DNA of 64,000 nt, from the IMG/VR virus record IMGVR_UViG_3300029969_000013, positions 1-64,000 of that record. The stretch is one strand, 5' to 3'. Below are positions 5,340 through 55,658 of this stretch, one piece after another. The position numbers and the translations under genes were made by a program. Origin of the DNA: a virus. Its lineage: Duplodnaviria > Caudoviricetes. How positions within the stretch are numbered: position 1 is the stretch's first letter; the number at the start of each line of letters is the position of its first letter. The notes beneath the pieces were generated by a model that saw only the letters and a program-made list of their open reading frames with translations, was not told where the DNA came from and did not search any database.

Positions 5340-6833
5340 ATGTCTAGAATCATAAATAAGTTGTTGAAACGTGGACACAAATATGAACATAAGAAGTCTT
5401 GGCTTCGTAATGTTGTATCAGGTTCGTTTTTGAAAATGTCTGATCTTAGAGGTAGCACAGATATTGATGATATAAAAACTAAGATTGATACTATGCGTGC
5501 TCTCGCTAATGACTCTCAAATCAGCACAGCACTTTCATATTATGCAACTGATGCTACAACTGCAAATACTAAAGGCCAGATAATTTGGGCGACTTCTGAT
5601 AACAAAGAGTGTGCTAGAATTATAAATGGCCTATTCAAACGCTGGAATATTAATTTGTATGTACGAGATCATATATTGGAATTAGCTACTATTGGAAACT
5701 TCTATATGCCCACTACATGGATGTATAATGATTATTCTAAATCATCTATACATATGGGTGTAGGTCTTGATAATAATACAATTCCTGATGATAAGTATGA
5801 TATGGTACCAGCATATATGATACCACCTGAGGATATAATCCACATATGGCATGAAGGTCAGCCCCAAGGTTATATCTATCAGCCTGAAGACGGCATACAG
5901 GATTATGTTTCATATCCAGAAGATTCTGTAATTCATTTTTCATTAGGTGGATTGCTAGGAAAATATACAATTGATACACGTAATCCAGATGGTACAGAGG
6001 ATACTTACGACATTCAGTTTGCTGAGCCTCTCATGAGTAATGCAGTATCTCCTACACAGACATTAAGTCTATTAGAGGACTCATTGTTATTATCTTCATT
6101 AAGCCGTATCATAAAATTTATAAATGTAGATTGTCAAGATGCTGAAGAGGAAGAGGTTCAAAATATCTTACAACAGATGAAGGATACTATTGAGCAGCAA
6201 TTGTCTTTGAATACTGCAACAGGCGATGCTCAAAGTTTCGTAAATCCTCAAAGTCCCAATAATCTGATTTATTTAGCACAAGTAAATGGTAAAGATGCTG
6301 TTTCTATTACAGATTTGAATATGGCAGAAGCTACTGAAGCAGATAATAGCTTGCTTGATTATTATCAAAACAAAAAGTTATCTGTATTAGGTGTTCCTAA
6401 AGAAGCAATGAATTTCTCTTCTGCAGAGGGGTTAGGAAATGCTGGTACTGTAATGTCACAACGTTCAGCATTGTATGCAAACATTCTAGAACGATTAATG
6501 AATGCATACAAAGAAGGATGGAGAACTGCTATAAATGCATATTTTAGGATAAACGGATATAGTGGATATGTAGATAAGTTTGATCTGCATATGAATCCAA
6601 TCATTACTACACAATCAACTGTTCAATTTGAGAAACGTGATGCAGCGCTTAACCAAGCTACTACTCTTATAGAACTGCTTAAGAACATAGGTATTCAAGA
6701 TGCAGATAATTATCGTGATTCGCTTGTAGAAATTCTTTCTGAAGTGTTCCCACAGATTGGTGCAGACATTCCAGGATGGGATATTCATACTGACGGAGCT
6801 GATCTGGGAGGAGGCGATGGTGATGTTCTCTAA
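5340..6833 (+). CDS. Portal protein (T4 gp20-like)
   Basis: About 500 aa after terminase; RDHILELATIGNFY, LEDSLLLSSLSR, ALGVPK-type motif VLGVPKEAM. Confidence 0.8.
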   Translation: MSRIINKLLKRGHKYEHKKSWLRNVVSGSFLKMSDLRGSTDIDDIKTKIDTMRALANDSQISTALSYYATDATTANTKGQIIWATSDNKECARIINGLFKRWNINLYVRDHILELATIGNFYMPTTWMYNDYSKSSIHMGVGLDNNTIPDDKYDMVPAYMIPPEDIIHIWHEGQPQGYIYQPEDGIQDYVSYPEDSVIHFSLGGLLGKYTIDTRNPDGTEDTYDIQFAEPLMSNAVSPTQTLSLLEDSLLLSSLSRIIKFINVDCQDAEEEEVQNILQQMKDTIEQQLSLNTATGDAQSFVNPQSPNNLIYLAQVNGKDAVSITDLNMAEATEADNSLLDYYQNKKLSVLGVPKEAMNFSSAEGLGNAGTVMSQRSALYANILERLMNAYKEGWRTAINAYFRINGYSGYVDKFDLHMNPIITTQSTVQFEKRDAALNQATTLIELLKNIGIQDADNYRDSLVEILSEVFPQIGADIPGWDIHTDGADLGGGDGDVL

Positions 6834-12158: not shown

Positions 12159-12578
12159 GTGAGCTATCATTATGAAAAAAAAATTAAAGCTGTTCCTGGA
12201 AAAGGTATTGTTGCAAGCGTAAACCCTTCTACTCGTAATTATGTTAAGGCTTCTACATCTGGTGCTAGTATACCAGCGCCGTTTAATAAGTACTACGATG
12301 TAGCCACCAGACAAGATTTTCAAGACATGGGTCTTGATACAGATTATTACATGGTTCCGTCTGATGCTTATGAAAATTACAGAGAATTGGAATTAATAGG
12401 CCATGCAGTTGCTAAGCCTGAGTATGAAGAGGCGCTAGGAGAATATTCATGTGTAGATATTGTTCGTGACAGCAGTTACAACAATTCTATAATGCTGGTA
12501 TTACCTGTAGGTGATCGTATATACGATGTTTCAATCAATGAAATTGAGGATCTTATAGATAATGCCAGTGATATCTAA
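12159..12578 (+). CDS. Leader-bearing acidic protein; likely true ATG (12172) is out of frame across an A9 tract
   Basis: Shares KAVPGKGIVAS leader with the next gene; the GTG start at 12159 lies inside the SD. Confidence 0.6.
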   Translation: MSYHYEKKIKAVPGKGIVASVNPSTRNYVKASTSGASIPAPFNKYYDVATRQDFQDMGLDTDYYMVPSDAYENYRELELIGHAVAKPEYEEALGEYSCVDIVRDSSYNNSIMLVLPVGDRIYDVSINEIEDLIDNASDI

Positions 12579-25266: not shown

Positions 25267-25844
25267 TGCATGGAGGTGCAATGTCAATGGCAGCTGTGTA
25301 TAAGAAACTTTCTAATTCACCGCTTACAAAATCAGATACTAATATACTAGTACCATATATAGATAGTCAATCTCATAGTTGGTATAAGAAATATGGCGGA
25401 TATCATACTGGTGTAGATGTTGAAGGTTCAGAAATATATGCATATCAATCAGGTGTTGTGATTCAGATTGGGGATTTAGATGACGGCCTAAAAGCAGTCG
25501 TTATACAATATACAGCCAATATATCTTTACGATATGCAAATATGTCAAGTTTACTTATAAAGATGGGCGATGTTATTAAACCTGGTGAATTATTAGGAAT
25601 AGCCAAGAAATTCGTACATTTTGAATATTTATCTAAAACTAAAGAAGATTCAATATGGCCTGTTCGTGTCGGTACTATGACATACTTCAAACATAATCCT
25701 GAATTGATATTTGACGGTGTTGTAAAGCTAAATGCTAATGATTGGTCACAAATAAAGACAGCTGATACTACAAGTCGACCTTATGTATTGAGAGAATCTC
25801 AATATTCTGAATTTGATACAGATGGTAGCGGAGGTGATAGATAG
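25263..25844 (+). CDS. M23 peptidase-family protein, likely degenerate
   Basis: YHTGVD (HxxxD) present; HxH reduced to FVHFE and YAH replaced by YAN. Confidence 0.7.
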   Translation: MMHGGAMSMAAVYKKLSNSPLTKSDTNILVPYIDSQSHSWYKKYGGYHTGVDVEGSEIYAYQSGVVIQIGDLDDGLKAVVIQYTANISLRYANMSSLLIKMGDVIKPGELLGIAKKFVHFEYLSKTKEDSIWPVRVGTMTYFKHNPELIFDGVVKLNANDWSQIKTADTTSRPYVLRESQYSEFDTDGSGGDR

Positions 25845-27559
25845 TGTCAAATTCTAACCTTGTAAGTTATATAGATTCTGGTTCTAAAAATTATAATGCA
25901 CGTACTGGGTCTATCACAAAGATAACTGTACATCATGCAGCTGGAAAATGTACATTATCCCAATTTACAAACATAATGCATTCTGGGCGTGAAGTTAGTT
26001 GGAATTATGCAATTGCATATGATGGCTCTATTGGATTATATATACCTGAAAAGTATAGAGCATGGACTACAGCTAATAGAGAAAATGACAATGTTGCAAT
26101 TACAATTGAAGTATCTAATTCATCAAATGGAGAGCCATGGCCTATATCAGATGCAGCTTATAAATCATTGTTGAATTTATGTGAAGATATATGTAGAAGA
26201 AATAATATACAAGCTATACAATATACAGGTAATAAGTCAGGAAACTTAACAATGCATAAATGGTTTGCATCTACAGGATGTCCAGGACCTACATTATCAA
26301 CTAAATTCTCAGACATAATGCAGAAAGTCAATACACGATTAGGTCAACCAAGTACATTACCATATATAACAGATCCTACTACTGGTGAAGTTACAGCTGC
26401 TGGTTTAGTATATAATGCAGTTACTATAGATATTGCATCTTTAGTTGATTATTCACAATTTACTCCATATGTAGCAACTATTGATAGAACTGTTAAGTCT
26501 ATAGATTTCAAAAAACTAAAAGAACATAGTGTATCAGCTGTTATGATTGAAGCTGGTGGTCTATATAATCGTTCACATTCTGTAGTAGAAAACTATGCTA
26601 ATCCATTACTAGATGAGCAAGTAAGAGGTGCAGGTGAAGCTTCTATTGATTATGGATTGATTGCAGATGTACGTTCTAGAAATGTAGAAGAAGCTAATGC
26701 TGAATTGAAAGAGCTTACAAGAATAATACAGAAGTATACACCACCATACGGCGTTTGGTTGAATTTGAATTTATCCGCTGATAAATCTACCAACAATAAG
26801 ATAATAGATAGATATGAATTTGTATTACAAGCTTTAGGTTTGAAAGATAAAATAGGATTCTATGCTACTAGAGAACAGATGTCAAAAATTGATTGGAATG
26901 AAGATCGTCAAAACATTTGGTATCTATGGCTCAATAACCATGTAAAAGAAGAAGAGCATTTAGCACAGCTGCTGTCTCCTGAATTTTTCATGTTTGATAA
27001 AGATAAAGCAAGCGATGTACCTGTTATCAATACTACAATTTATACTGGATATAGTGATACTGGAATAGAATCTGGAATACTTACAGAATACAGCGATTGG
27101 GTGTTTGTAGGTGATTCTAGGACTGTAGGCATGGGCAATAGTGTTTCAGGTATAACAACTATGGCGAAGGTTGGCGGAAATTATAAGTACTTCTCGTCTT
27201 TGATATCTAATATCAAGAAGCTTCATAATAAGAATATTGTACTTTGGTTTGGTGTCAATGATTTGAATAATGTAAGTAAATATGTGATGGCCTATAACGA
27301 TTTATGTTTCACCATGACAGATTGTAAAATAATTGTAGCAACTGTAGGTCCTACAAGAGGTTCATATGCTAAATTGATGCCAGACATACAAGATTTCAAC
27401 GCTGCATTGAAAGATAGATTGAATCATAATATTACAATTGTCGATGTATGTTCTAAAATGATAAGTGGTACGTATACATCACCTGATGGGTTGCATTATA
27501 ATTCAAAAACTTATAAATGTGTATATAACTACATTACAAATGGAGTATATACAGAATAG
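25844..27559 (+). CDS. Virion-associated hydrolase: Amidase_2 + degenerate GH25-like + SGNH/GDSL esterase
   Basis: ITVHHAAG..AWT..ITIEV..HKWFASTGCPG; IDFKKLK..VMIEAG; GDSRT/GVND/DGLHY. Confidence 0.8.
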   Translation: MSNSNLVSYIDSGSKNYNARTGSITKITVHHAAGKCTLSQFTNIMHSGREVSWNYAIAYDGSIGLYIPEKYRAWTTANRENDNVAITIEVSNSSNGEPWPISDAAYKSLLNLCEDICRRNNIQAIQYTGNKSGNLTMHKWFASTGCPGPTLSTKFSDIMQKVNTRLGQPSTLPYITDPTTGEVTAAGLVYNAVTIDIASLVDYSQFTPYVATIDRTVKSIDFKKLKEHSVSAVMIEAGGLYNRSHSVVENYANPLLDEQVRGAGEASIDYGLIADVRSRNVEEANAELKELTRIIQKYTPPYGVWLNLNLSADKSTNNKIIDRYEFVLQALGLKDKIGFYATREQMSKIDWNEDRQNIWYLWLNNHVKEEEHLAQLLSPEFFMFDKDKASDVPVINTTIYTGYSDTGIESGILTEYSDWVFVGDSRTVGMGNSVSGITTMAKVGGNYKYFSSLISNIKKLHNKNIVLWFGVNDLNNVSKYVMAYNDLCFTMTDCKIIVATVGPTRGSYAKLMPDIQDFNAALKDRLNHNITIVDVCSKMISGTYTSPDGLHYNSKTYKCVYNYITNGVYTE

Positions 27560-27574: not shown

Positions 27575-29737
27575 ATGAGTTTTGTTCCTAGATTAGAAGC
27601 TCCTTCAAGCTCTAGTCCGTATTGGAGGACTACCGGCTCAGGTGGCTATAACAAATGTATAAATATATCAGGTGGTTCTACTATACCGAACTGTGTAGGA
27701 TATGCTTATGGTAGATTCATGGAAATAATGCAAGCTACATCATGTAACTTGTCAACAAACAATGCAGGAAAGTGGTATGGTAACACAAGTGATGGATATG
27801 CTCGTAGCGATAAACCACAATTAGGTGCTGTAATTTGTTGGGACCACCCTGGGCAAGCTGGACATGTAGCTATTGTAGAAAAAATAAATTCTGATGGTTC
27901 AATAGTTACATCAAATAGTGCATACAATGGTAAACTATTCTATACGCAAACACTTAATCCACCTAATTATACATGGAGTAGTAACTATAAGCTGCAAGGA
28001 TTCATATGTAACCCTTCAGTATCTGGAAACAATACAATTGGACAAGCAAGTAAGTTATCATTATTTTTACAAACTGCTAAATCACAAATAGGAAAGAAGC
28101 AGGATTGGGTCAGATCTGTCATAAATTGTGGTGATATTGAATGGTGTGCTGCATTTGTATGTGCATGTGCAAAAATTGCAGGTGTGTTAGATGTCATAAT
28201 TCCTAATAGTTATGGCTGCGGAACATTATTGAGTACTGGAGTAAGCAAAGGATGGGGCACATTTCTTAAAGGACCTTGGTTCAACTGTAATGTAATACCG
28301 CAGGCTGGTGATTTAATAACATTTAGACGCAATCGTGGTTATACAGATGAATACTCTTGTAGTCATATAGGAATAGTTACAGGGTGTGACGGATCTACTG
28401 TATATACTGTAGAGGGTAATACTGTTACATATGATAGACATACAAGTTCTATAAAGGATAAAAGTTATGGTGTATCTTATGAATGTATTCATGGATATTA
28501 TAGACCTAATTGGTCTGTAGTAGGTGCAAGTGCTGGAGATTGGATGCTTGGCGGTGGTGCAGCATTTTCGTTATACAATACACAGAATACCCGTGAAGAT
28601 GCTATGATACGTGAAATTGGATACTTAGATAACGATTATAAACCTTCTATATCTACATCCAAGATAAAATTGTCCGTTATTAATTATACATCGAAACTGG
28701 CTGAAGTATTTTCTCAAATAACTGTTGCGTATGGTGGATTTGGTGATGTAATGGTAGATGGTATAGATGATCCAAACGCTCGCACAATCATAGCTTATTT
28801 AGTTGGGAAAGGTCTGAATGCAGCAGCTGCTTGTGGAGTATGCGGAAATGTGAAACATGAGTCTGGATATAAAACAGATGCAGTTGGTGACTATGGCACA
28901 TCATTTGGAATATGTCAATGGCATAATGAACGTGGTACTAACATGAAGAGCTTTGTAGGTAGTGATTGGGCAACTAATCTAACAGGTCAACTTGATTTCT
29001 TATGGAATGATCTGACATCATTGTTACCATCGACTCTTAAGAAATTACAAGCAGTTCCGAATACTGTAGAAGGCGCTAAACGTGCTGCTGATGTATTTGT
29101 TCGTGAGTTTGAACGTCCTGCACAAGTAGATACACAGTCGGCGTTACGTCAAGCAACTGCTGCTGGGTTATTCAGTAGTTGTGTTATACAACAATCAACT
29201 GCTGCTGGTGGAGGTGTAGCGAGTCAGGTAACTACACAATCTGGGGGTACACCGTCTAATCCTAAGACAATAACAATACCTGCAAATGTCAATCAGTCTG
29301 GTATTACAGCAAATTATACTAACTACACATATTTTTATACTAGATGGGCTAGAAGTTCTATACAGCGAAAACTTGCAGATATATGGAATCAACAAGGTAG
29401 GCCTAGTGATAGGAACATTGCTACTATAAACGGATATTATTTATGTGCTGTAACTTTGACTATAGGAACAACTGGGGATCTAATAACTGTTGTATTGCAA
29501 GACGGTACTTCATTCAATTGTATAATAGCTGATTCTAAAGGTGCAAATCCTGGATTGACTGGAGAATCGGGCAATCAATTTGGACATTCATTCGGAAATG
29601 GAACTATTGATGTCATTGAATGGGAGAAGAAAGGATCGGCAGCTTCTGGGACTGACAATCATACACAGATTGACTTAAAAGGGTGGAAAGGTAAGAAAGT
29701 AGCCAAAATTCTTAATTATGGAACATTTCTTAAGTAA
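27575..29737 (+). CDS. Virion-associated hydrolase: two CHAP-like domains + phage tail lysozyme + C-terminal beta domain
   Basis: NCVGYAYGR/GHVAIVE; WCAAFV/SHIGIV; GNVKHESG..GICQW..FERP. Confidence 0.85.
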   Translation: MSFVPRLEAPSSSSPYWRTTGSGGYNKCINISGGSTIPNCVGYAYGRFMEIMQATSCNLSTNNAGKWYGNTSDGYARSDKPQLGAVICWDHPGQAGHVAIVEKINSDGSIVTSNSAYNGKLFYTQTLNPPNYTWSSNYKLQGFICNPSVSGNNTIGQASKLSLFLQTAKSQIGKKQDWVRSVINCGDIEWCAAFVCACAKIAGVLDVIIPNSYGCGTLLSTGVSKGWGTFLKGPWFNCNVIPQAGDLITFRRNRGYTDEYSCSHIGIVTGCDGSTVYTVEGNTVTYDRHTSSIKDKSYGVSYECIHGYYRPNWSVVGASAGDWMLGGGAAFSLYNTQNTREDAMIREIGYLDNDYKPSISTSKIKLSVINYTSKLAEVFSQITVAYGGFGDVMVDGIDDPNARTIIAYLVGKGLNAAAACGVCGNVKHESGYKTDAVGDYGTSFGICQWHNERGTNMKSFVGSDWATNLTGQLDFLWNDLTSLLPSTLKKLQAVPNTVEGAKRAADVFVREFERPAQVDTQSALRQATAAGLFSSCVIQQSTAAGGGVASQVTTQSGGTPSNPKTITIPANVNQSGITANYTNYTYFYTRWARSSIQRKLADIWNQQGRPSDRNIATINGYYLCAVTLTIGTTGDLITVVLQDGTSFNCIIADSKGANPGLTGESGNQFGHSFGNGTIDVIEWEKKGSAASGTDNHTQIDLKGWKGKKVAKILNYGTFLK

Positions 29738-36784: not shown

Positions 36785-38125
36785 ATGAGGGCACGTGTAA
36801 AAGATAAGCCTATAATTGATGCATCAGATACACCCATATTAGGTACATATGAAGGTGAAGCATTAGATACTAATATTACAAACAACAATGGTTTGGATAT
36901 TACTGCAGAGGTAATTAAACAAGTTTTAGCATCTGACGAATATGCACAAGGTCTTGAAAACGGTTGGTTCATCGGATTCCTAGGTCATCCAGAAGATCCA
37001 AACTGTATGGATTTTAAAGATGGATGTATTGTATTAACTGATATGTCAATAGATGATAACGGCAAAGTTTATGCTAAATTTAATCTTATTGATACACCAG
37101 TAGGTAGAATTGTAAAGACTCTTCAAGATGCTGGAGTAGTATTTGGAATTTCTATAAGAGGGGCTGGAGATATTGTAGGTAACTCTGTAGACCCAGATAC
37201 TTTTGTATTTAGGGGATATGACCTTGTTTCATTTCCAGCATATCCAGACTCTATTCCTACATTTACAGCAATTGCAGCTTCTACTAATCTAGAAGACAGA
37301 AAGAAGTATCAAGCTGTATGTGCAGCTGTTAAAAATAATCTGTCTACTATAACAAGTGCATCTACTATAGATGTATTGAAATCTCAATTTGCACCTCAGT
37401 CAAATGAATATAAGTTGCTAGAATCTAGACAGACTGAGCTAGATGTTGACATTGTAGATGATGTAAATGCACAGAAGATAGAAGCAATGACTCAGCTGTA
37501 TTTAGATGCAATGCAAAATGTAACTTCGTTGGCGAAACAGCTTGAATCTGAAAAGAGACAAAATGCTTCTATATCATCTGCAACTCGTCGTAAATTAGCA
37601 GCTGTTGAAAGAATAACTGCAAGTCAGCTGCACGATGCTCTTTCTGAATTAGATTCTATAAAGGCATCTTATAGGGATATGAAGCATAAGAATGCTATAT
37701 TAGGTGCTAAATTATCTGAAGTAAAAAAGACTAACCTTATATATAAACAGAAGGTAGAATCAAGTACATCCGAACTCAGAAAGAAGAGTAGAATTATTGC
37801 AAGTCTTCAAAGGGAGCTTAGTGAAACCGTCACAGCAAGTTCTAAGATCAAGGCAAGCGCATCTAACCTAGGTGTAAGTAATGAACGTCTTCAAGATGAG
37901 GTGAACATTTATAAAAATCAGCTTGATTCTTATCAACAAGCTTATGCAAGTATGTATGCTGCTGCAGTTGGTGTAGATCCAGGACATCTTCCTATCACAT
38001 CTTCTACGTCTATAGAAGATTTACAAGATATGATTGAAAATGCAACAAATACAGCAGGAATGTCTTCGATGATAGAACCTGTATATATCGAAGATGAAGA
38101 TGATACAGATATTGCAACCTTGTAA
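36785..38125 (+). CDS. Prohead maturation protease fused to a coiled-coil scaffold domain
   Basis: GFLGHPEDP (His), GISIRGAG (Ser), YDLVSFPAY as in T4 gp21/HK97-clan proteases; long coiled-coil C-terminus. Confidence 0.85.
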   Translation: MRARVKDKPIIDASDTPILGTYEGEALDTNITNNNGLDITAEVIKQVLASDEYAQGLENGWFIGFLGHPEDPNCMDFKDGCIVLTDMSIDDNGKVYAKFNLIDTPVGRIVKTLQDAGVVFGISIRGAGDIVGNSVDPDTFVFRGYDLVSFPAYPDSIPTFTAIAASTNLEDRKKYQAVCAAVKNNLSTITSASTIDVLKSQFAPQSNEYKLLESRQTELDVDIVDDVNAQKIEAMTQLYLDAMQNVTSLAKQLESEKRQNASISSATRRKLAAVERITASQLHDALSELDSIKASYRDMKHKNAILGAKLSEVKKTNLIYKQKVESSTSELRKKSRIIASLQRELSETVTASSKIKASASNLGVSNERLQDEVNIYKNQLDSYQQAYASMYAAAVGVDPGHLPITSSTSIEDLQDMIENATNTAGMSSMIEPVYIEDEDDTDIATL

Positions 38126-38173: not shown

Positions 38174-39649
38174 ATGGCAATTAAGAGATCGTCTCGTAGA
38201 CCTATTGCGTCTAGCGTAAATAGACGTAGACCTATTACAGCTGGTACAAGCATTACTTCTGGTGCTAGAAGTAAGAAAGCTCCAAATTCTAAGATAATGG
38301 CAAGCTTCAATGCATTGAATCCAGCACAGAGAGCATTTGTTCGTCAGCTGCAGTCAACATGTCGTAAGCATTCATCTATCATGGGTGCAACTAATACATC
38401 TAATATTGCTGCAAGACCTGAATTCATGGAACTCCTTCCATTATTCGTTCAGAAGCTGCTTATTCTTGATGTATTCGGATCTGTTGCAATGAAGTCCAGA
38501 CAGCAGATGATTCCGTATTTCAAGTTTATAGCTGAAAACACTAAAGGTGAAACTGCTAAGGGTACAATCTTGTCAAGCCCAATGGTTCAGAGACAGGGTC
38601 TTGATCCAAACTTCACAGGACGTGTTGTTAAGAATGAAGTTATCGGTTCGGGTGTGCTTACAGCAGCTGCTGATACAGTTATTGCATCGTTTGCATATCT
38701 TCCTGTACTTCCTGGTTCTGTTACAATCGAAACAAATAAGAGCGGTACTACTACATCTTATGTAGATAATGGCCTTGGTGAAATTCTTGACAGCACACAG
38801 ACTACAATTGCTAATATCAACTACAGCACAGGCGAAATTACACCTGTTACAGCTGGTGTTACACCTCTTACACTCGCAAGCGGCGATACAATGAAGGCTA
38901 CATATCAGTATGACAATGAGACTGTAGGCCCAAATGCCGAAGGTAATTACGGTGCTCAGATGGGTAAGGGTTATCTACAGCTTGATGAATTCAATCTTAT
39001 TGCTGAAGCACATCAGCTTGCTTGCTACTGGTCAATCTATTCTGCATTTGCAGCTCAGACAGAATACGGCAGCAACATTGCAGATGTTGCCAAGGAAGCA
39101 GCATTCTCTGAACTTACAGCTGAGATTAACACAAAAGGCTTCCAGGAACTTGAAAAGGCTGCAAGCTTCAAGCCGCAGTATAACTGGGATGCATCTCCAG
39201 TTCTTACAGGTTCTGTTGTGCCTTCTGATTATCTCAACATGTTCAAGCTCAAGCTGAACCAGGCATCTTCTGCTATTTATCAGGCAACTAATCTGTCACG
39301 TGGTAACAGACTTGTAGTCGGTTCTAACGTAGCTGCTTATGTTGCAATGATTGATAACTTCGTTGCAGACAGCACAGAAGATACAGTAGGTCCATATAAG
39401 CTTGGTCGTCTTGATCAGTTTGAAATTTATGTAGATCCTGCTTACGATCCTAATAAGTGGGTAATGTGCTGCAAGTCTAACGACATTAGACGTAACTCTG
39501 CACTGTTTGGTGAGTACATGCCATTCACAGATACACAGGCAATTGGTCTTGCTAACTCTAGCGTTCAGCAGGGCTACGCTACAATGTATGCTATGAAGGT
39601 TGTAAACCCAGCAACAGTTGTCAGTGGTAAGATTACAGGCGTATTTTAA
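38174..39649 (+). CDS. Major capsid protein (T4 gp23-like) with basic propeptide
   Basis: EAHQLACYWSIYSAF, ELTAEIN, GYATMYAM motifs; directly after the protease; optimised codons. Confidence 0.88.
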   Translation: MAIKRSSRRPIASSVNRRRPITAGTSITSGARSKKAPNSKIMASFNALNPAQRAFVRQLQSTCRKHSSIMGATNTSNIAARPEFMELLPLFVQKLLILDVFGSVAMKSRQQMIPYFKFIAENTKGETAKGTILSSPMVQRQGLDPNFTGRVVKNEVIGSGVLTAAADTVIASFAYLPVLPGSVTIETNKSGTTTSYVDNGLGEILDSTQTTIANINYSTGEITPVTAGVTPLTLASGDTMKATYQYDNETVGPNAEGNYGAQMGKGYLQLDEFNLIAEAHQLACYWSIYSAFAAQTEYGSNIADVAKEAAFSELTAEINTKGFQELEKAASFKPQYNWDASPVLTGSVVPSDYLNMFKLKLNQASSAIYQATNLSRGNRLVVGSNVAAYVAMIDNFVADSTEDTVGPYKLGRLDQFEIYVDPAYDPNKWVMCCKSNDIRRNSALFGEYMPFTDTQAIGLANSSVQQGYATMYAMKVVNPATVVSGKITGVF

Positions 39650-43768: not shown

Positions 43769-43897
43769 ATGAGTGATGTAAAGAAGCTTACTACTGATAA
43801 TGGTTTGATCGAATCTATCGAATGTGACCTCACATACGAAGATTTACCCGAAGATATGAAAGCAGAGTTTGCTGATGGTAAAGGAGGCGAAGACTAA
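43769..43897 (+). CDS. 42-aa acidic peptide coupled to the endolysin (absent from ORF track)
   Basis: AAGGAGG SD; MSDVKKLTTDNGLIES...DGKGGED; TAATG overlap with the endolysin start. Confidence 0.65.
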   Translation: MSDVKKLTTDNGLIESIECDLTYEDLPEDMKAEFADGKGGED

Positions 43898-44949
43898 TGG
43901 CTTATACAAACAGTCCGTTAGTTACTAAAACACAAAGATCTTCTAAACATAATGACAGAAGATATCCAATCACTAAAATTACTATACATCATGCTGCCGG
44001 CGTTATGAGTTTCGACACACTTCTGAATTATGTTGCAACTTGTCCTAGAGATATGTCTGCTAACTATGTACTGCGTCAGGGCAAGCTTGGACTTGTTGTC
44101 GATGAAAAATACAGAGCTTGGACATCTTCTAATGCAGAAAATGATCATAGAGCTGTAACCATTGAAGTCGGCAACTCATCTTCAGGTGGACAGTGGCCTA
44201 TTGCAGATGTCGATCTTGAATTGCTTATCAAATGGTGTGCAGACGTATGTAAGAGAAACAATATTCCGAAGTTGTATTATGATGGAACTCCTAATGGATC
44301 TCTTACACTCCATGAGATGTTCGCTGCAACTGGCTGCCCTGGACCTTATATCAAGTCGAAAATCAATTATATTTGCACAGAAGTAAACAAGCTTATTAAT
44401 TCTACCAGCACTGGTAATACAACGTCATCTGCGCCAAATGCGACTGGTAATTCAACCTATAAAGTTGTGACAAACGTGTACGGTTATATGACAGCAGCTG
44501 ATGCTGTAGCTGACAAAAACCGCAGGCGTACAGTTACTCCTGGTACTTATTATATATATAATGAGACATCTACAGCGGTGAATGTGACATTGAATAAAGC
44601 TGTTCCAGGTGCTTGGATTTGTAAAGCTAAAAACATCACAGCGTCTACATCTACTCCATCTACTAAGAAGTCTGTGGAAGCTATTGCCAAAGAAGTTATT
44701 GCTGGTAAATGGGGCAACGGTTCAGATAGAGTAAATAAACTTACAGCAGCTGGTTACAATGCTACAGAAGTACAGTCTAAAGTAAATGAATTGTTATCCG
44801 GCAAGAAATCTACAAAGAAGTCTGTTACAGAAGTTGCTAAAGAAGTAATTCTAGGTCAATGGGGCAACGGTTCAGAACGTAAGAAGAAGCTTGAAGCTGC
44901 TGGGTACAATTATGCTGAAGTACAAGCTGCTGTAAATAAATTACTGTAA
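43897..44949 (+). CDS. Endolysin: Amidase_2 + two Cpl-7 (CW_7) cell-wall-binding repeats
   Basis: ITIHHAAG..AWTS..HEMFAATGCPG; two copies of KSV..IAKEVI.GKWGNG..R..KL.AAGYN..EVQ..VN.LL. Confidence 0.92.
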   Translation: MAYTNSPLVTKTQRSSKHNDRRYPITKITIHHAAGVMSFDTLLNYVATCPRDMSANYVLRQGKLGLVVDEKYRAWTSSNAENDHRAVTIEVGNSSSGGQWPIADVDLELLIKWCADVCKRNNIPKLYYDGTPNGSLTLHEMFAATGCPGPYIKSKINYICTEVNKLINSTSTGNTTSSAPNATGNSTYKVVTNVYGYMTAADAVADKNRRRTVTPGTYYIYNETSTAVNVTLNKAVPGAWICKAKNITASTSTPSTKKSVEAIAKEVIAGKWGNGSDRVNKLTAAGYNATEVQSKVNELLSGKKSTKKSVTEVAKEVILGQWGNGSERKKKLEAAGYNYAEVQAAVNKLL

Positions 44950-46714: not shown

Positions 46715-48535
46715 ATGATACATGTAATTCAAAACAATGATGTATATGAACTTACATTTAAATATGATGAGCTGCTTATATCATATGTAAAAAATGTACC
46801 AGGTCGTACTTGGTTACCAGATAAAAAGAAATGGACTATTCCAAAGGAGCATCTAGGATGGTTCCTCAATGAGATAAAGGGCACAGTATATGAAAATTGT
46901 GTTAATATCATATCAGATGAACACTTGAATGAAAATGCTACGCTTGATTCAACATCTGAATCCCAAATTCCTAATATAGATATTTCTGATATAGATCAAT
47001 ATGTTATGGAAGGAGGTTCATTATATAAACATCAGATTGATTTCTTGAAATATGCTAAATCTAGAAATTCAGCAGGGTTCATACTTGCAGATGAAATGGG
47101 ATTAGGTAAAACTTTGGAAGTAATAAACTATGCACTTTATCAAAAGAAAGTACATGGATACAAACATTGTTTAATCATATGCTGTGTGAATTCTGCAAAA
47201 TATAGTTGGAAAGAAGATATAGAGAAGCACACTAAAGGTGCAGAGTCGGCATATATTTTAGGAACACGAAAGAAACGTAATGGTGGTATTAGATATGGTA
47301 CATCTGGAGCTGATAAAACTCAAGATTTGATATCTGGGCATATGTATAGTGATCCAAGTGAACCTGAACTTCCATTCTTTCTTATTACTAACATTGAATC
47401 ATTGAGGACAAGATCTGGTAAACAATATACACTAGTTGCTGAAATTGTCAAGATGACCTGGAAGAAAGAAATGCCATTGATAGCTTTAGACGAAATACAC
47501 AAGAATATGTCACCTAAATCTACTCAAGGTAAGATGGTTCTTAAAATCAAACAAATGACTGGAAGTGCTATAGAGTGGATTCCAATGACAGGTACTCCAA
47601 TTGTAAATAAGCCTACTGATGTATTTACACCATTGAAATTGATAGGTGTGCATAGTGTCAAAAGTTACTGGGAATGGTGTAAATTGTTTGTTATATATGG
47701 AGGATATGGTGACCATGAAATAATGGGATATAAAAATATACCTCAGCTGAAACAGATGTTACAAAATAATATGCTTCGTAGATTGAAGAAAGATGTACTA
47801 GATTTACCAGATAAAATACATCATAATATATATGTGGAAAACACACCTACACAAGCACAGTTGTATGCATCATTACAAACTGAAATATATGAAAATAAAG
47901 AATCTATATTAGGATCTATGAATCCATTAGCATCATTCCTTCGTTTACGACAGGTCAATGGAAGTCCAGAACTTGTTGATAAATCTATTGTAGTAGATGA
48001 TAAGTATTTATCAAAGAATGCTAAGCTGGCTGAACTTATGAGGTTGCTTGAAGATATAATTGAACGAGATGAAAAAGTAGTAATATTTTCAAACTGGGTA
48101 GAACCGCTCAAAACCTTATATAGATTTGTAGCAGCAAAATATAAAACTACATGTTTTACTGGTACAATGTCTGAAGAAGATCGACAGAAGCATAAACGTG
48201 TATTCTTGAATAATCCTGACTATAAGATTATGCTTGGCACTATTGGCGCACTTGGTGTTAATCATACTCTTACTGTTGCAACAAATGTTATTTTCTATGA
48301 TGAACCTTGGACACCTGGTGATAAGATTCAAGCTGAAGATCGTTGTCATCGTATTGGTTCTAAATATCCGCTTAATATTTACACATTGTTGACAGTTAAT
48401 ACTGTTGATGATACTGTCCACAAAATAATAGGTGATAAAGCGGATATCTCAGGATACATTGTAGATGGTAAGCTGGATTTGAGAAATAATCCAGAATTGT
48501 TTGAAAAGCTTCTAGGAGATGTACATCGAATTTAA
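46715..48535 (+). CDS. SNF2-family helicase/translocase
   Basis: LADEMGLGKT, LDEIH, MTGTPIVN, MLRRLK, QAEDRCHRIG. Confidence 0.93.
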   Translation: MIHVIQNNDVYELTFKYDELLISYVKNVPGRTWLPDKKKWTIPKEHLGWFLNEIKGTVYENCVNIISDEHLNENATLDSTSESQIPNIDISDIDQYVMEGGSLYKHQIDFLKYAKSRNSAGFILADEMGLGKTLEVINYALYQKKVHGYKHCLIICCVNSAKYSWKEDIEKHTKGAESAYILGTRKKRNGGIRYGTSGADKTQDLISGHMYSDPSEPELPFFLITNIESLRTRSGKQYTLVAEIVKMTWKKEMPLIALDEIHKNMSPKSTQGKMVLKIKQMTGSAIEWIPMTGTPIVNKPTDVFTPLKLIGVHSVKSYWEWCKLFVIYGGYGDHEIMGYKNIPQLKQMLQNNMLRRLKKDVLDLPDKIHHNIYVENTPTQAQLYASLQTEIYENKESILGSMNPLASFLRLRQVNGSPELVDKSIVVDDKYLSKNAKLAELMRLLEDIIERDEKVVIFSNWVEPLKTLYRFVAAKYKTTCFTGTMSEEDRQKHKRVFLNNPDYKIMLGTIGALGVNHTLTVATNVIFYDEPWTPGDKIQAEDRCHRIGSKYPLNIYTLLTVNTVDDTVHKIIGDKADISGYIVDGKLDLRNNPELFEKLLGDVHRI

Positions 48536-48780: not shown

Positions 48781-48795
48781 TTGAGGTGTATTTAT

Positions 48796-49779
48796 ATGAA
48801 AAAGTTTAAGAAGTATCCATCAAGTATTAAAGCATCGACAGGAGGTCGTAATAGGAAGAAATATGTTCAAGCTGCAGAAAGCGATTACATCAAAATCGGT
48901 AACATGATGATTCCAAAGAATGCTGCGTCTTATGGATATGATAGCTACGAAAATATTGCACGAGATGCAAAGCAGCGTTTGGACATTGAAAGAGAAACTA
49001 AACGTAAGGCAGACGAAGCTGCTGCAAAGGCTGCAAAAGCTAATGATATAAAAGCCAAAGGTGCAGCGTTGTATCAAGAATGTAAAGAAGCTATATCTGA
49101 TGCATCTTCTGATAAAGATAAGGTAAATGCTTTGTTCGATATCTTAGTACCAGATTCTGGAAAATCTGATACGCTTGCAGGTGAGATCATAAGAGCTGTT
49201 ACTCGAATCGGTTATAGATGGTACAATGACGGAGATTATTTCTATACAGGATATGGTCTTGAAACATGCGGCTCAGATGCTGCATTCCTTGCAGATATTA
49301 TCGGTGGTGATACGTTCGATTTAATTGTAGATGCTACAGATAATATGGGAGATGAACAAAGATATGATATGTTCATAGAAGATCTTACACACGATGTATT
49401 AGATTATGTTATGGACAATCCCGATATATTTGGAGTTGAATCTACGTATGACTCTCGTAACTATACAAGTAATACTTTAGACGAAATAAAAGAAAATTCT
49501 AAAAATATGGAATTTGAGCCTGATGTATATGGTTTTGCAGAGTTTGTAGATAGCGGTATTATATCCTGGAGCGATGTTGAATATTGGTTACAAGAACTAA
49601 CTAGTTACTATGGTGGTACTGTTAATGCGTGGGCAAGAGATGGATTCACTATAGTTGATATAGATATGGATCAATATGACGAATGGGAAAATATGTACGA
49701 AAAAGAGTTGGATTCTTACATGTCTGAGCTTGAATCTGAGCTTGAAAACGACGAAAATTACGATGAAGATGAGGAGTAA
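48796..49779 (+). CDS. Leader-bearing acidic protein (SIKAS, VQAA)
   Basis: GAGGTG SD; very D/E-rich body. Confidence 0.75.
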   Translation: MKKFKKYPSSIKASTGGRNRKKYVQAAESDYIKIGNMMIPKNAASYGYDSYENIARDAKQRLDIERETKRKADEAAAKAAKANDIKAKGAALYQECKEAISDASSDKDKVNALFDILVPDSGKSDTLAGEIIRAVTRIGYRWYNDGDYFYTGYGLETCGSDAAFLADIIGGDTFDLIVDATDNMGDEQRYDMFIEDLTHDVLDYVMDNPDIFGVESTYDSRNYTSNTLDEIKENSKNMEFEPDVYGFAEFVDSGIISWSDVEYWLQELTSYYGGTVNAWARDGFTIVDIDMDQYDEWENMYEKELDSYMSELESELENDENYDEDEE

Positions 49780-49785
49780 TGTTAT

Positions 49786-50049
49786 ATGAAGAGAATTTAT
49801 TCAGCTCTTAATAAATATACAGAATACAGCATTTCTGATGTAGAAAGGGAGCTTCTCAATCGTATTGGATCTAGAGTCGGGGCTGAGTCTGCTATTATCG
49901 TGAATCTCGGTACAGGTGAAGCGGGTGTAATCTCTGAAACTGCTGATGGTGATATTGTACTTGATAACTTAGATACTGGAAAGCGTACATGGGATGCACA
50001 AAATGTAATTGAAGAGGTGCTAACATCATGGGACAAATCTATTAAGTGA
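49786..50049 (+). CDS. Leader-bearing small protein (MKRIYSA)
   Basis: GAGGAG SD. Confidence 0.7.
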   Translation: MKRIYSALNKYTEYSISDVERELLNRIGSRVGAESAIIVNLGTGEAGVISETADGDIVLDNLDTGKRTWDAQNVIEEVLTSWDKSIK

Positions 50050-50057
50050 GGTGCTGT

Positions 50058-50297
50058 ATGAAACGATTTATCAAATGCTCTGCTAATACGTGTAAAGCTA
50101 CAGGTCGTACTTGGTCTGAATTTATCCGAAATATAAAATCTGCTTTAGGATATGAAGTAGATTCTGCATATCGTAGATCACCTGATCAGTTCATATTGAT
50201 GTATTTAGATGGTGCAGAATATGAAGGTGAAGTAACTAGATATTCAGACGGCACATATGAATTGGTATGTGATAACATATATCCAGCTAGGATGTAA
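50058..50297 (+). CDS. Leader-bearing small protein (MKRFIKCSA)
   Basis: GAGGTG SD. Confidence 0.7.
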   Translation: MKRFIKCSANTCKATGRTWSEFIRNIKSALGYEVDSAYRRSPDQFILMYLDGAEYEGEVTRYSDGTYELVCDNIYPARM

Positions 50298-52605: not shown

Positions 52606-52648
52606 GTATAACCTTTAATATCATAGAACATATATTAGGAGGTATACT

Positions 52649-53302
52649 ATGGGTTACATTCCGACTACTATAAAACAGTATGCAAACGAAGACATAAATG
52701 CTGCACTGAAAGCAGTATCAAACAACATGAAGTTATCATCAATGTCATTTGATAAGGACGGCGTAGATAAAAATAGCGATGAATATACTGTGTATGCAAC
52801 AGCTATTATTGCATGTCCAGATCTCAAATTACAATTTGAGTTCATAATGGAATATGTAGTAACATCAGACGGTTCTGTATATGCAAGTGGTACAGTTGAT
52901 GAGTTTGCTGATTCACTTGAAGATAGATATGCTGCTTGCGAATCTGGTGAAGATGGTGAACCTATCACCGCATCTACTAGAGTCAAGCGACAACCTATCA
53001 TGGCAGCAGAAGACGAAGATGAATTCATAGACACTGTAGATGATCTTTCAGATAGTGTAGATGATATACAAGATACGCTTGATGAGATTGACGGAACAGA
53101 AATCGAAGAAGATGAAGTTGATATTGAGGTTGATAACAATATCGCCAATCATTACATTGCAGAATGTGATACGTGTCATGGGCTTTTCATTTCAGCGTTG
53201 ATTGAATCAGATCAAGAAGTTGAAAAGGTATCTGGTGTCTGCCCACTCTGTAATAAAGATACAGATCAATATCTAAAATTTATCGTGCGTCCTATTGAGT
53301 AG
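52649..53302 (+). CDS. Two-module protein: internal PITAS/RQPIMAA motif, acidic linker, C-terminal Zn ribbon
   Basis: CDTC and CPLC pairs; preceded by the class A promoter motif. Confidence 0.7.
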   Translation: MGYIPTTIKQYANEDINAALKAVSNNMKLSSMSFDKDGVDKNSDEYTVYATAIIACPDLKLQFEFIMEYVVTSDGSVYASGTVDEFADSLEDRYAACESGEDGEPITASTRVKRQPIMAAEDEDEFIDTVDDLSDSVDDIQDTLDEIDGTEIEEDEVDIEVDNNIANHYIAECDTCHGLFISALIESDQEVEKVSGVCPLCNKDTDQYLKFIVRPIE

Positions 53303-53317
53303 AGGGAGGTGTGGTAA

Positions 53318-53785
53318 ATGGATTGGAGTTCTATATTTGTTGCGAGTTTACCAGTAATATCGGCTGTGCTCGTAGCAGTTCTAAATAATTGGGAAAAGAT
53401 CAACCCAAGTAAACGTAAAATAAATGAAATGTATAAACTTGTATCCGATCTTAAATCGGAATTACAGTCGAACAGTCAACAGTTTGATGAGTTATCTAAA
53501 CAAGTAAGATCTGTATCGTCTGCACAACGTATAAGTTTGCAAACTAGAATCCTTGAATACTGTAAAAAGATTCAAAATTCTATAGATGACGGAGAGATAG
53601 ATTACCGTGAAGATTTGAAGCAGCTTATCATATTATATAGGGAATATTATCTATGTGGGTACAACAGCCAAGGTAGATTATACTTCAATGATACTATTCA
53701 AAAAGCAACAGACGATAACAATACGCTTGTTCATGAGCTTATGACTACATATTTTTCAGAATACGACCCAGATGCACATATTTAA
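53318..53785 (+). CDS. Membrane-anchored coiled-coil protein (holin-associated type)
   Basis: N-terminal hydrophobic helix followed by a coiled coil; adjacent to the holin candidate. Confidence 0.5.
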   Translation: MDWSSIFVASLPVISAVLVAVLNNWEKINPSKRKINEMYKLVSDLKSELQSNSQQFDELSKQVRSVSSAQRISLQTRILEYCKKIQNSIDDGEIDYREDLKQLIILYREYYLCGYNSQGRLYFNDTIQKATDDNNTLVHELMTTYFSEYDPDAHI

Positions 53786-53797
53786 GGAGGAGTAATT

Positions 53798-54181
53798 ATG
53801 TGGAATCAAATATTATCAGCAGTGTTAGGTATCGCAATAACAGCACTTGGTACAGTAATTACTACAGTGTTGTTACCGGCATCATGTAATTGGCTGAAAG
53901 CTAAAACACATAGCCAGCATTTACAATCCGTTATTGATGATATAACATTTACAGTTCAGTCTAGTGTAGATATGCTGGAACAGACAGTTGTAAAGCAGCT
54001 TAAGGAAGAAAAATCCTGGAATGCAACATCTCAAGCACAAGTTCTAGAAACAGCTGTAACTGAAATAGTGACGAATTTATCAAATCAGACATTTGACATA
54101 TTGAAAGCAGAAGGTTATAATATTGAAACTTTGGTAAAGCGTCACATTGAAGCATATATTCAATCTAAGAAAATAATTTAG
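53798..54181 (+). CDS. Putative holin (LL-H-like)
   Basis: Single N-terminal TM helix; EQTVVKQLK..AQVLETAV pattern. Confidence 0.6.
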   Translation: MWNQILSAVLGIAITALGTVITTVLLPASCNWLKAKTHSQHLQSVIDDITFTVQSSVDMLEQTVVKQLKEEKSWNATSQAQVLETAVTEIVTNLSNQTFDILKAEGYNIETLVKRHIEAYIQSKKII

Positions 54182-54191
54182 AGGTGATTTC

Positions 54192-55589
54192 ATGCGAATA
54201 ATCAGATCGAATCGCAATATTAATGCTGCATCTATGCCGCCTACTCCTTATGATATTGGACCTGAAGATCCTAAGGAGTATAGCAAGCTCGATGAGTTTG
54301 ATTCTGAATTAGAGCTGTACTTTGATGAGCCTATAACTATTGATGAGGATGGTTATGTTGAGCTTACAGGTACAGAGTATATGCTCAATCCTGCACCAGA
54401 CCGAATGGGCATGTATCTTGACTATGATTACAATGTTGAGATAGCAGATGCCGATGACATATATGATCGACTTGGCGATGAATTAAATGCTATAGGCATA
54501 GGTTCTAAATATGCACCTGGAACATACAAAGTGACTGGTATTATCAATCTAGTTTCTTCTGTTAGCGGCATAGAATATGATGACGAATATTCTGGTGTTG
54601 ATGAAGACGGTGATCCAATTGTAGATAGGTCTTATTATAAAGATGATTCAGACTACACTATCAAATCATTTATAGTATCTGATGTAAAAGTATCTGGTGC
54701 TACTATAAACAGCTCTACAACTGTAGTAGGATACGATGGCATTGATGAAGATAGCTGGAAGTATCTCCGTAGTAAGCAGGTAATAGACTCAGACGGTATG
54801 CTGACTGATTACACATTGTACAAAAATGCAGATGGTACACAGTTTATATGCATGTTTGGTGATAATGATTTGTATGAACCTGATCCTGATTATGCAGACT
54901 GGGAAGGTAGCTCCGAGGAGGAAGCTATTGAATGGTTTGACAATTACAGCAGCGGTTATGATGAATACGATGATATCTATGGTGCAGAGTCTGCAGATGA
55001 ATCTGATGCATATGATGAAATCAAAGAAATAGGCCAGGAGTTTACATCTGAAAATACATCCATTAACAGCGGTAGACTTCCAGCAGTGTTCAACATGGTA
55101 AATTTTGAACCTAGTACAGTCAACCTCGACTACGGCGGTGGTAAGTTTGACAATGTTGCAGAGTATCTTACACAGTATGATGTTATCAATCTTGTATATG
55201 ATCCGTACAACAGAACTGCAGAGCATAACAAAGAAGTCATTGGACTTATTCGTGAACATGGTGGAGCAGATACAGCTACATGTTCTAATGTGCTGAATGT
55301 TATCAAAGAACCGGAAGTTCGTTTGAATGTTCTTCAGAATATCAAGAAGCTTGTAAGACCTGGTGGTACTGTTTACATTACAGTATATGAGGGTAAAGGT
55401 AATGCAGCTGAAGGTCCTACAAAGTCTGGCTATCAACTTAACAGAAAGACAGCCGATTACATGGAAGAAATCCAGCAAGTATTTCCTGATGCAAGACGTA
55501 AGGGTAAACTTATCATTGCTACTAACAGTGGTGCTGTTACAAGCTCTACAGATTATGAGGATGATGACATCGAACTTATCACGCTGTAA
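54192..55589 (+). CDS. Leader-bearing multidomain acidic protein with C-terminal class I SAM methyltransferase domain
   Basis: NLDYGGGKFD (motif I), YDPYN, CSNVLNVI, VRPGGTVYITVYEG. Confidence 0.8.
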   Translation: MRIIRSNRNINAASMPPTPYDIGPEDPKEYSKLDEFDSELELYFDEPITIDEDGYVELTGTEYMLNPAPDRMGMYLDYDYNVEIADADDIYDRLGDELNAIGIGSKYAPGTYKVTGIINLVSSVSGIEYDDEYSGVDEDGDPIVDRSYYKDDSDYTIKSFIVSDVKVSGATINSSTTVVGYDGIDEDSWKYLRSKQVIDSDGMLTDYTLYKNADGTQFICMFGDNDLYEPDPDYADWEGSSEEEAIEWFDNYSSGYDEYDDIYGAESADESDAYDEIKEIGQEFTSENTSINSGRLPAVFNMVNFEPSTVNLDYGGGKFDNVAEYLTQYDVINLVYDPYNRTAEHNKEVIGLIREHGGADTATCSNVLNVIKEPEVRLNVLQNIKKLVRPGGTVYITVYEGKGNAAEGPTKSGYQLNRKTADYMEEIQQVFPDARRKGKLIIATNSGAVTSSTDYEDDDIELITL

Positions 55590-55615: not shown

Positions 55616-55658
55616 ATAGACTACATAGTCAAACATACTTGGCTATGTAGTCTATTTT
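55616..55658 (+). terminator. Rho-independent terminator overlapping a class B promoter motif
   Basis: ATAGACTACATAGTCAA...TTGGCTATGTAGTCTAT followed by T-run. Confidence 0.7.

Follow-up and report, generated by a model that had tools for sequence, protein, structure and literature searches.

The internal proteins IPI-III and Alt of phage T4 carry an N-terminal capsid targeting sequence that is removed by the gp21 prohead protease, and the phages phiKZ, 201phi2-1 and SPN3US likewise have head-internal proteins with propeptides, with several cuts in each protein and with paralogues that share identical leaders (PMC5694885). The characterised proteases of this gp21/S77 type cut after Glu, at L/I-x-E in T4 and at S/A/G-x-E in phiKZ and SPN3US (PMC5694885). 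In herpesviruses, the assemblin-scaffold genes UL26/UL26.5 encode a protease-scaffold fusion that cuts at YLQA↓T and VQA↓S, and cleavage at the M-site takes off the C-terminal tail by which the scaffold binds the capsid protein (PMC4498786). Polyvalent proteins, which are encoded by phages and conjugative elements, have been proposed to be delivered together with the DNA (Iyer et al. 2017, PMC5512222). Here we analysed one open reading frame (ORF), starting at position 54192, in the first 64 kb (hereafter the window) of the phage record IMGVR_UViG_3300029969_000013 of IMG/VR, which is 77 kb long and rated about half complete. The ORF encodes two acidic modules, A and B, and a class I S-adenosylmethionine (SAM)-dependent methyltransferase, framed by a basic leader and an acidic tail. 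We assign a probability of about 0.5 to the reading that proheads take up this target protein and that it is processed at copies of a tetrapeptide motif, [IV]-x-[ASG]-[SAG], because the motif that stands at its module junctions also marks the capsid and scaffold proteins of the phage. As a head cargo of the T4/phiKZ type in a variant form, the protein is partly supported by the evidence below.

AlphaFold2 (AF2) models of the target were built from alignments of 57 and 43 sequences. The folded regions span residues ~30-168 in module A, 189-251 in module B and ~299-447 in the methyltransferase, for which a conserved N-terminal segment, QEFTS..TSINS..LP, begins already at residue 276. Residues 1-14, 170-187, 257-275 and 450-465 were modelled with low confidence (predicted local distance difference test, pLDDT, <50), and the motif copies INAA (residues 10-13), INSS (172-175), IYGA (262-265) and VTSS (449-452) all fall inside these disordered segments. 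Having the motif in all four segments is matched by only ~0.1% of within-segment residue shuffles (p ~0.001), and the 372 folded residues contain a single copy. In nine collinear orthologues (67-96% identity), all four motif positions are conserved, whereas the residues around them vary. Because the tetrapeptide is low in information, its weight comes from this placement and conservation. A preliminary description, made from the letters of this DNA, had proposed the order of leader, acidic domain 1, linker, acidic domain 2, linker, methyltransferase and terminal piece, with a motif copy at each boundary; this order agrees with the AF2 segments and with the module orders of homologues, and the computation supports a modular, precursor-like chain.

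The module boundaries are confirmed by homologues that carry the same modules in other orders (B-methyltransferase-A, methyltransferase-A, methyltransferase-B-A, A-methyltransferase and the methyltransferase alone), with at least eight architectures among 331 relatives. Of these 331 proteins, 193 contain module A, which forms the very C terminus in 154 cases and directly follows a leader in 27; module B is present in 157 and also forms stand-alone ORFs in other phages. Both modules are strongly charged, with a net charge of -29 over 161 residues for A (-0.18 per residue) and -20 over 90 for B (-0.22 per residue). A wide VIA search with A and B gave a best Z score of 5.8 (an ATP-grasp subdomain), which is below the noise level stated for the tool; BFVD returned family members only, and ESM Atlas no usable match. 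No match to the whole target protein was found in the PDB by sequence. A match to AcrID1 at E 0.005, whose 17 bits fall short of the cut-off of 30, was treated as noise.

We ranked 89 ORFs for the motif, each against shuffles of its own sequence. The most enriched one was ORF 36785 (15 copies observed, 3.5 expected, p<0.0005), which encodes a gp21/S77-like prohead protease and, in the same chain, a scaffold-like part, and the second was the Gp23-family capsid protein (14 observed, 4.2 expected, p 0.0005). Prohead proteases classically act on these two kinds of protein. The copies in the protease-scaffold protein include one after the protease domain (AIAAS, residue 163), eight between residues 263 and 355 in the coiled coil and one 42 amino acids (aa) before the C terminus. 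In the capsid protein, the copies near the N terminus lie ahead of the part alignable with other capsid proteins, and these sites are kept in six phages (63-90% identity). Such a distribution is what would be expected of a prohead protease site. The family to which the target belongs points in the same direction. We inferred module boundaries in 236 non-redundant relatives from all-against-all BLAST and found 15.0 motif copies per 1000 aa within 15 aa of a boundary against 2.6 elsewhere, a 5.7-fold enrichment. When the flanks of the methyltransferase were excluded, the densities were 14.0 and 2.8 per 1000 aa (5-fold), whereas permuted motifs of the same composition were enriched only 1.2-2.4-fold at boundaries. 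From these patterns we infer that the motif is a site of the prohead protease, and ORF 36785 is the proposed processing enzyme as well as the proposed source of the tail that the target shares with it.

The two ends of the target also resemble head proteins. The leader is similar to the N terminus of the capsid protein (MAIKRSSRRPIASS), and a leader of this basic type ending in the motif is found at 46% of the N termini in the family against 6.8% of the other ORFs in the same loci. The tail consists of an acidic run that ends in DDDIELITL, with VTSS 14 aa before the end of the protein, and relatives of the target end in IVCL, IVYI, LVIL or LTTL. The protease-scaffold protein of the same phage ends in DDTDIATL, and in seven related phages the protease-scaffold tails end, after acidic runs, in LATL, IVTI, IVAL, VATV, LVTL or FTTL (in fuller form NDDLATL, DDDIVTI, DDDIVAL, NLVTL and SFTTL). 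We scanned 1545 non-redundant six-frame ORFs from the fetched loci for this tail pattern and obtained nine matches; protease-scaffold proteins accounted for five of them and the methyltransferase family for three, and the ninth was a spurious ORF. A structure prediction of the capsid protein together with the last 40 residues of the target scored 0.00 and counts neither way.

The expression signals and the gene arrangement may link the target to morphogenesis. The sequence AACCTTNWATA occurs 10 times in the window, always on the + strand, against 0.63 copies expected. Most copies lie 18-39 nt before the start codons of morphogenesis genes, and the genes that follow include the portal gene, the sheath region, the morphogenesis genes 14064, 18793 and 33791 and a tRNA cluster, several of them being tail-region (baseplate/fibre) genes. 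Two copies lie inside ORFs, at 28641 in ORF 27575-29737 and at 37733 in the protease-scaffold gene, ~430 nt before the capsid gene; the latter arrangement is reminiscent of the nested herpesvirus genes UL26/UL26.5. The copy at 48112, beyond the structural block, is upstream of a run of leader-bearing ORFs. We consider AACCTTNWATA a likely late-type promoter element that has no -35 box. The copy upstream of the unit that contains the target is kept in related phages. No terminator-like site was found between ORF 52649 and the target, and a hairpin follows the target; hence the target is the last gene of a four-gene unit. A ribosome-binding site, AGAGGTGA, is located 6 nt upstream of its start. 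A perfect sigma-70 promoter, TTGACA-17-TATAAT, at 54093-54121 lies within the final part of ORF 53798 and precedes the target start by 71 nt. It was dropped as evidence of early expression because it has three mismatches in a 96%-identical relative and because near-consensus sites are equally frequent on the gene-free strand; it is probably a chance or strain-specific occurrence.

Besides the target, only four ORFs of the phage match proteins of the family (12159, 48781, 50046 and 52649), and all four carry the leader. Their homologues occur as motif-bounded modules of methyltransferase polyproteins in other phages (L057, P0244, P0093/P0039 and P0194). Because these four leader-bearing ORFs form modules elsewhere, one unit can exist either as a tagged single gene or as a segment of a polyprotein. 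This swapping is what a model of cutting at linkers predicts.

The methyltransferase is the module whose fold can be named. Pfam Methyltransf_23 matched with E 6.8e-6, its 26.3 bits falling just short of the cut-off of 27, and Methyltransf_12 reached 18.5 bits of the required 30. The AF2 model of the module has a pLDDT of 84 and a predicted template modelling score of 0.82, and Foldseek matched it with probability 1.0 to class I methyltransferases, of which >500 chains had E<1e-3. The best VIA match was 7bgg (Z 12.7, root-mean-square deviation 3.3, 151 residues aligned), a Mycobacterium tuberculosis heterocyclic toxin methyltransferase, followed by Trm9 and METTL6 at Z 12.1. These enzymes share with the module the Rossmann fold and the acidic residues of motifs I and II, and they differ from it in sequence (14-17% identity), in its own conserved N-terminal QEFTS..TSINS segment and in its sub-cut-off Pfam score. 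The VIA list of small-molecule and tRNA methyltransferases is flat, from Z 12.7 to 10.9, so that no methyltransferase family stands out; a PDB sequence search with the methyltransferase profile gave only an O-methyltransferase at E 0.009. LDYGGG (motif I), VYDPY (with the acidic residue ending strand 2) and SNVLNVI are present, and among 57 diverse sequences Asp313, Gly317, Asp337 and the NVLNV residues are invariant and Gly315 is found in at least 90%. The class I assignment and the three motifs given in the preliminary description were thus borne out, including the Rossmann fold. The same cannot be said of a DNA-protecting role, which it had offered as an example. (D/N/S)PP(Y/F/W), PCQ and ENV are missing from the target sequence and from the 57-sequence consensus, the motif after strand 4, SNVLNVI, is of the Methyltransf_11/23 type, the module of ~170 aa apparently has no target-recognition domain, and no DNA methyltransferase is among the best 50 VIA structural matches. 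On these grounds, DNA protection is the less likely option. The module is predicted to bind SAM, with a small molecule, RNA or protein, not DNA, as the most likely substrate.

The module is widespread, with 2729 cluster representatives at E<=0.001 and 3355 short forms, and its hosts range from stand-alone proteins of 158-200 aa to fused proteins of up to >4151 aa. In relatives, its partner domains include ART-PolyVal together with DUF7178 (L067), a Sno-type (Strawberry-notch) helicase together with LPD38 (L050), and furthermore LPD11, ArdA, YafQ and PhageMin_Tail (tape-measure), none of which is present in the target itself; these partners place the methyltransferase module among polyvalent proteins (PMC5512222). 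A metagenome protein of 2468 aa, P0216, has the methyltransferase at residues 618-793 and PhageMin_Tail at residues 2326-2460, a direct fusion to a virion protein. The neighbours of 22 stand-alone methyltransferase genes showed no recurrent partner family (at most 4/97). TIGR04096, a family of Dnd-associated putative methyltransferases, was rejected as an assignment; the target does not match it (at least 150 bits are needed), no member was detected in the genome, and two distant stand-alone relatives scored 13.8 and 18.2 bits. Recoding at in-frame stops in three relatives was discarded as well, two of them being natural stops and the third a single CGA-to-TGA change. The latter interrupts the methyltransferase at 6037-6576 of L013 (IMGVR_UViG_3300045988_102969), the near-identical sister contig L006 is intact, and either a nonsense mutation or an error in sequencing, not recoding, accounts for the stop.

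From these patterns we infer packaging, cutting and ejection of the target along the following lines. The target would be made together with the morphogenesis genes, and its basic leader, like the capsid N terminus, would recruit it into the assembling prohead; the acidic C-terminal tail (hydrophobic-x-T-L), common to the protease-scaffold protein, may help in this recruitment or accomplish it instead. In the prohead, the gp21-like serine protease would cut the chain at [IV]-x-[ASG]↓[SAG] in the leader, in the two linkers and before the tail, and release module A of ~18 kDa, module B of ~10 kDa and the methyltransferase of ~21 kDa. The products would be retained inside the head and pass into the host together with the DNA, with the acidic modules A and B as candidate binders or mimics.

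Such a scheme has features in common with T4, namely a putative short N-terminal propeptide ending in a protease-type site, hypervariable cargo genes, and the occurrence of a gp21-like protease alongside a gp23-like capsid protein. Unlike the L/I-x-E site of T4, the putative site here is [IV]-x-[ASG]-[SAG], and whereas T4 cargo is single-domain, the target has several modules per chain, internal sites and a C-terminal tail. The phiKZ-type phages differ in their (S/A/G)-x-E motif and in propeptides that are often >100 aa, and neither a shared C-terminal scaffold-type tail nor domain-separating sites as in the target have been reported for them. With herpesviruses, ORF 36785 shares the protease-scaffold layout and the type of motif, and the target matches the pattern of an assemblin-type substrate by having a protease-scaffold-type tail preceded by a (V/L/I)-x-A↓S-type site, both being comparisons of pattern; the phage protease, however, scores as S77 and not S21, and the herpesvirus tail is found on the scaffold only and not on unrelated enzymes. 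Polyvalent proteins resemble the target in combining disparate modules in one chain with extreme shuffling, as seen in the recurrence of its three modules among the architectures above, and the ART-PolyVal, LPD11, LPD38, Sno-type helicase and ArdA partners link its methyltransferase to them. Their own methylase is an EcoKI/TaqI-like adenine methylase with NPP(Y/F), a different class from the methyltransferase of the target (PMC5512222). Moreover, their processing is ascribed to in-built zincin peptidases and here to a prohead protease acting on a linker code, and the target is small in comparison at 465 aa. Encapsulins offer a further parallel, in which a short C-terminal peptide addresses unrelated enzymes into an HK97-fold shell; no DNA, protease or ejection is involved, and the sequence of the cargo-loading peptide differs from the tail of the target.

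Several observations weigh against head loading and processing of the target. The ORF is flanked by genes for an HD hydrolase, a UvrD-like helicase and an SbcC-like protein, ~16 kb away from the head genes, and its position among replication and recombination genes is kept in ~35 phages. The motif is short and degenerate, with ~2.6 copies expected per shuffled protein, and the excess in the target itself is marginal (6 observed, 2.6 expected, p 0.05). The interdomain linker of the endolysin has the same tetrapeptide, and the motif may therefore be in part a general linker habit. The S77 match of ORF 36785 is weak (26 bits against a cut-off of 27), and a specificity for [IV]-x-[ASG]-[SAG] would be new for the gp21/S77 family; a Glu at the expected place is not found in the leader, linker 1 or the C-terminal site, and only linker 2 (IYGAE) would fit. 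T4 internal proteins are basic, whereas modules A and B are strongly acidic, and Foldseek against the PDB gave a best E of 0.08 for the two modules, which leaves them without a known fold. Many family members end with module A and without a tail, so the tail is not the sole address. Support for head cargo comes from sequence patterns throughout. Several of these points would equally fit an intact polyvalent-type protein that stays in the cytoplasm instead of being packaged. Its junctions would be flexible Ser/Ala/Thr-rich linkers, its methyltransferase and acidic domains would act together during infection, and its leader and tail would serve translation efficiency, turnover or a replication/recombination partner. 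Apart from the conserved position and the endolysin linker, such a protein would account for the boundary enrichment of the permuted motifs by linker composition alone and for the result of a domain search that found no peptidase domain in the target, and polyvalent proteins such as N4 vRNAP and ArdC often act unprocessed (PMC5512222). It leaves unexplained that the ordered motif is enriched 5-fold at boundaries and its permuted versions are not, that motif enrichment is highest in the protease-scaffold protein and the capsid protein, that the tail is common only to protease-scaffold proteins, that the operon carries the promoter-like motif of the morphogenesis genes, and that the modules occur elsewhere as separate leader-tagged genes. 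We therefore regard an intact cytoplasmic protein as rather unlikely.

Another option is that the protein is packaged, is cut only near its termini so that the leader, the tail or both are lost, and is ejected as one three-domain chain whose internal motif copies are inaccessible or unused. The likeness of the leader to the capsid N terminus and of the tail to that of the protease-scaffold protein would be satisfied by end-trimming, for which the capsid-targeting propeptides of T4 and the removal of the herpesvirus tail at the M-site are precedents (PMC5694885, PMC4498786), and the modest motif excess in the target would cause no difficulty. The internal linkers are, however, predicted to be disordered and keep the motif across orthologues, boundaries throughout the family carry it, and modules found as separate tagged genes in other phages fit separable products better than an obligate fusion, which makes end-trimming without internal cuts an unlikely outcome. 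The methyltransferase could also shield the incoming phage DNA from restriction, as DarB of P1 does, with the acidic modules as DNA mimics. One relative fuses the methyltransferase module to ArdA, DarB-type enzymes are common methylases of polyvalent proteins (PMC5512222), and the charge densities of A and B would suit a mimic; given the type of the SNVLNVI motif, the missing DNA-methyltransferase motifs, the apparent lack of a target-recognition domain, the small-molecule and tRNA methyltransferases among the structural matches and the lack of a TIGR04096 match, we consider this role very improbable.

The ingredients of head loading and processing at linkers are already known from the targeting propeptides of T4, the processed ejection proteins of phiKZ/SPN3US, the assemblin sites and scaffold tails, and the polyvalent proteins. 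In the literature searched, we found no description of their combination as seen in this large gut-phage clade, where protease-type sites separate domains, an enzyme bears a scaffold-type tail, and tagged modules swap between single gene and polyprotein. A wider and more tentative proposal, to which we would give somewhat less than even odds, is that a large clade of animal-gut myophages uses a portable address-and-cut code, consisting of a basic leader, assemblin-like separators read by a gp21-type protease and a scaffold-borrowed tail, to load shuffled effectors as single genes or polyproteins. If true, this code would give tailed phages a counterpart to viral polyproteins and to the cargo peptides of encapsulins, head cargo could be encoded as polyproteins cut at linkers, and a gp21-family protease would have a herpesvirus-like instead of a Glu-directed specificity. 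It would also supply a sequence rule for spotting proteins that are packaged in the head and injected into the host, in a large clade of uncultured phages (the methyltransferase module alone has >3000 relatives). By this rule, thousands of uncharacterised modules, the methyltransferase included, would become candidate injected effectors, and the widespread, highly conserved non-DNA methyltransferase would be a probable early-acting one. Finally, a short set of tags to load foreign proteins into capsids would be available, as the T4 targeting sequence already provides.

Table 1. Positions of the target ORF, its segments and related features in the window
Feature	Position	Strand	Basis or remark
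Whole target ORF	54192..55589	+	465 aa, 52 kDa, isoelectric point ~4; leader-A-B-methyltransferase-tail
Basic N-terminal leader, residues 1-14, ends INAA	54192..54233	+	orthologue conservation; pLDDT <50
Module A, residues 15-169	54234..54698	+	acidic, beta-rich, one long helix; AF2 pLDDT ~85
Linker 1, residues 170-187, INSS motif	54699..54752	+	pLDDT <50; motif in 9/9 orthologues
Module B, residues 188-256, small acidic domain DSDG..TDY..ICMFGD..YADWE..EWF	54753..54959	+	AF2 fold
Linker 2, residues 257-275, acidic, conserved DDIYGAE with IYGA motif	54960..55016	+	pLDDT <50
Class I SAM-dependent methyltransferase module, residues 276-447	55017..55532	+	Pfam, AF2, Foldseek, VIA, invariant residues
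VTSS motif and acidic peptide ending LITL, residues 448-465	55533..55586	+	pLDDT <50; protease-scaffold-type tail
Terminator-like hairpin, 17-bp stem and T run	55616..55655	+	directly 3' of the target ORF
Promoter-like motif AACCTTNWATA	52610..52620	+	29 nt before ORF 52649, first gene of unit 52649-53318-53798-54192
All AACCTTNWATA copies	5307, 9167, 14018, 18743, 28641, 33779, 37733, 48112, 52610, 62777	+	motif scan of the window
Leader-bearing ORFs	12159-12578, 48781-49779, 50046-50297, 52649-53302	+	homologues inside methyltransferase polyproteins of other phages
Putative prohead protease (gp21/S77-like) fused to coiled-coil scaffold part	36785..38125	+	15 motif copies; DDTDIATL tail
Major capsid protein, Gp23 family	38174..39649	+	five motif copies in first 72 residues

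All genes of the window are on the + strand. The record encodes, in addition to the prohead protease and capsid proteins, a portal protein, a tail sheath, baseplate parts, helicases, an HD hydrolase, an SbcC-like protein and two amidase lysins, and complete relatives of the phage are 145-166 kb long. The capsid protein is ~25% identical to the capsid proteins of SPO1-like (Herelleviridae) phages of Bacillota. Searches of phage GenBank records gave no match for DNA and two weak matches for protein, and near-identical DNA is contained in sheep-gut, rat-gut and wastewater DNA runs. The target locus is syntenic yet hypervariable in ~35 phages. The three members of the unit upstream of the target, probably co-transcribed with it, span 52649-54181; ORF 52649 combines an acidic middle with a zinc ribbon at the C terminus and contains PITAS and PIMAAE as internal sites, and ORFs 53318 and 53798 each start with a predicted membrane helix. 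Amidase-type lysin domains (phrog_7698) occur twice in the window. The gene at 25844-27559 encodes a 571-aa protein inside the tail/baseplate block, likely a virion-associated lysin, and that at 43897-44949 a 350-aa endolysin with NITAST in its interdomain linker. The portal protein (5340-6833) opens with MSRIINKLLKR..., a basic leader, and carries VVSG at residues 26-29; it may be processed too, as the portals of phiKZ-like phages are.

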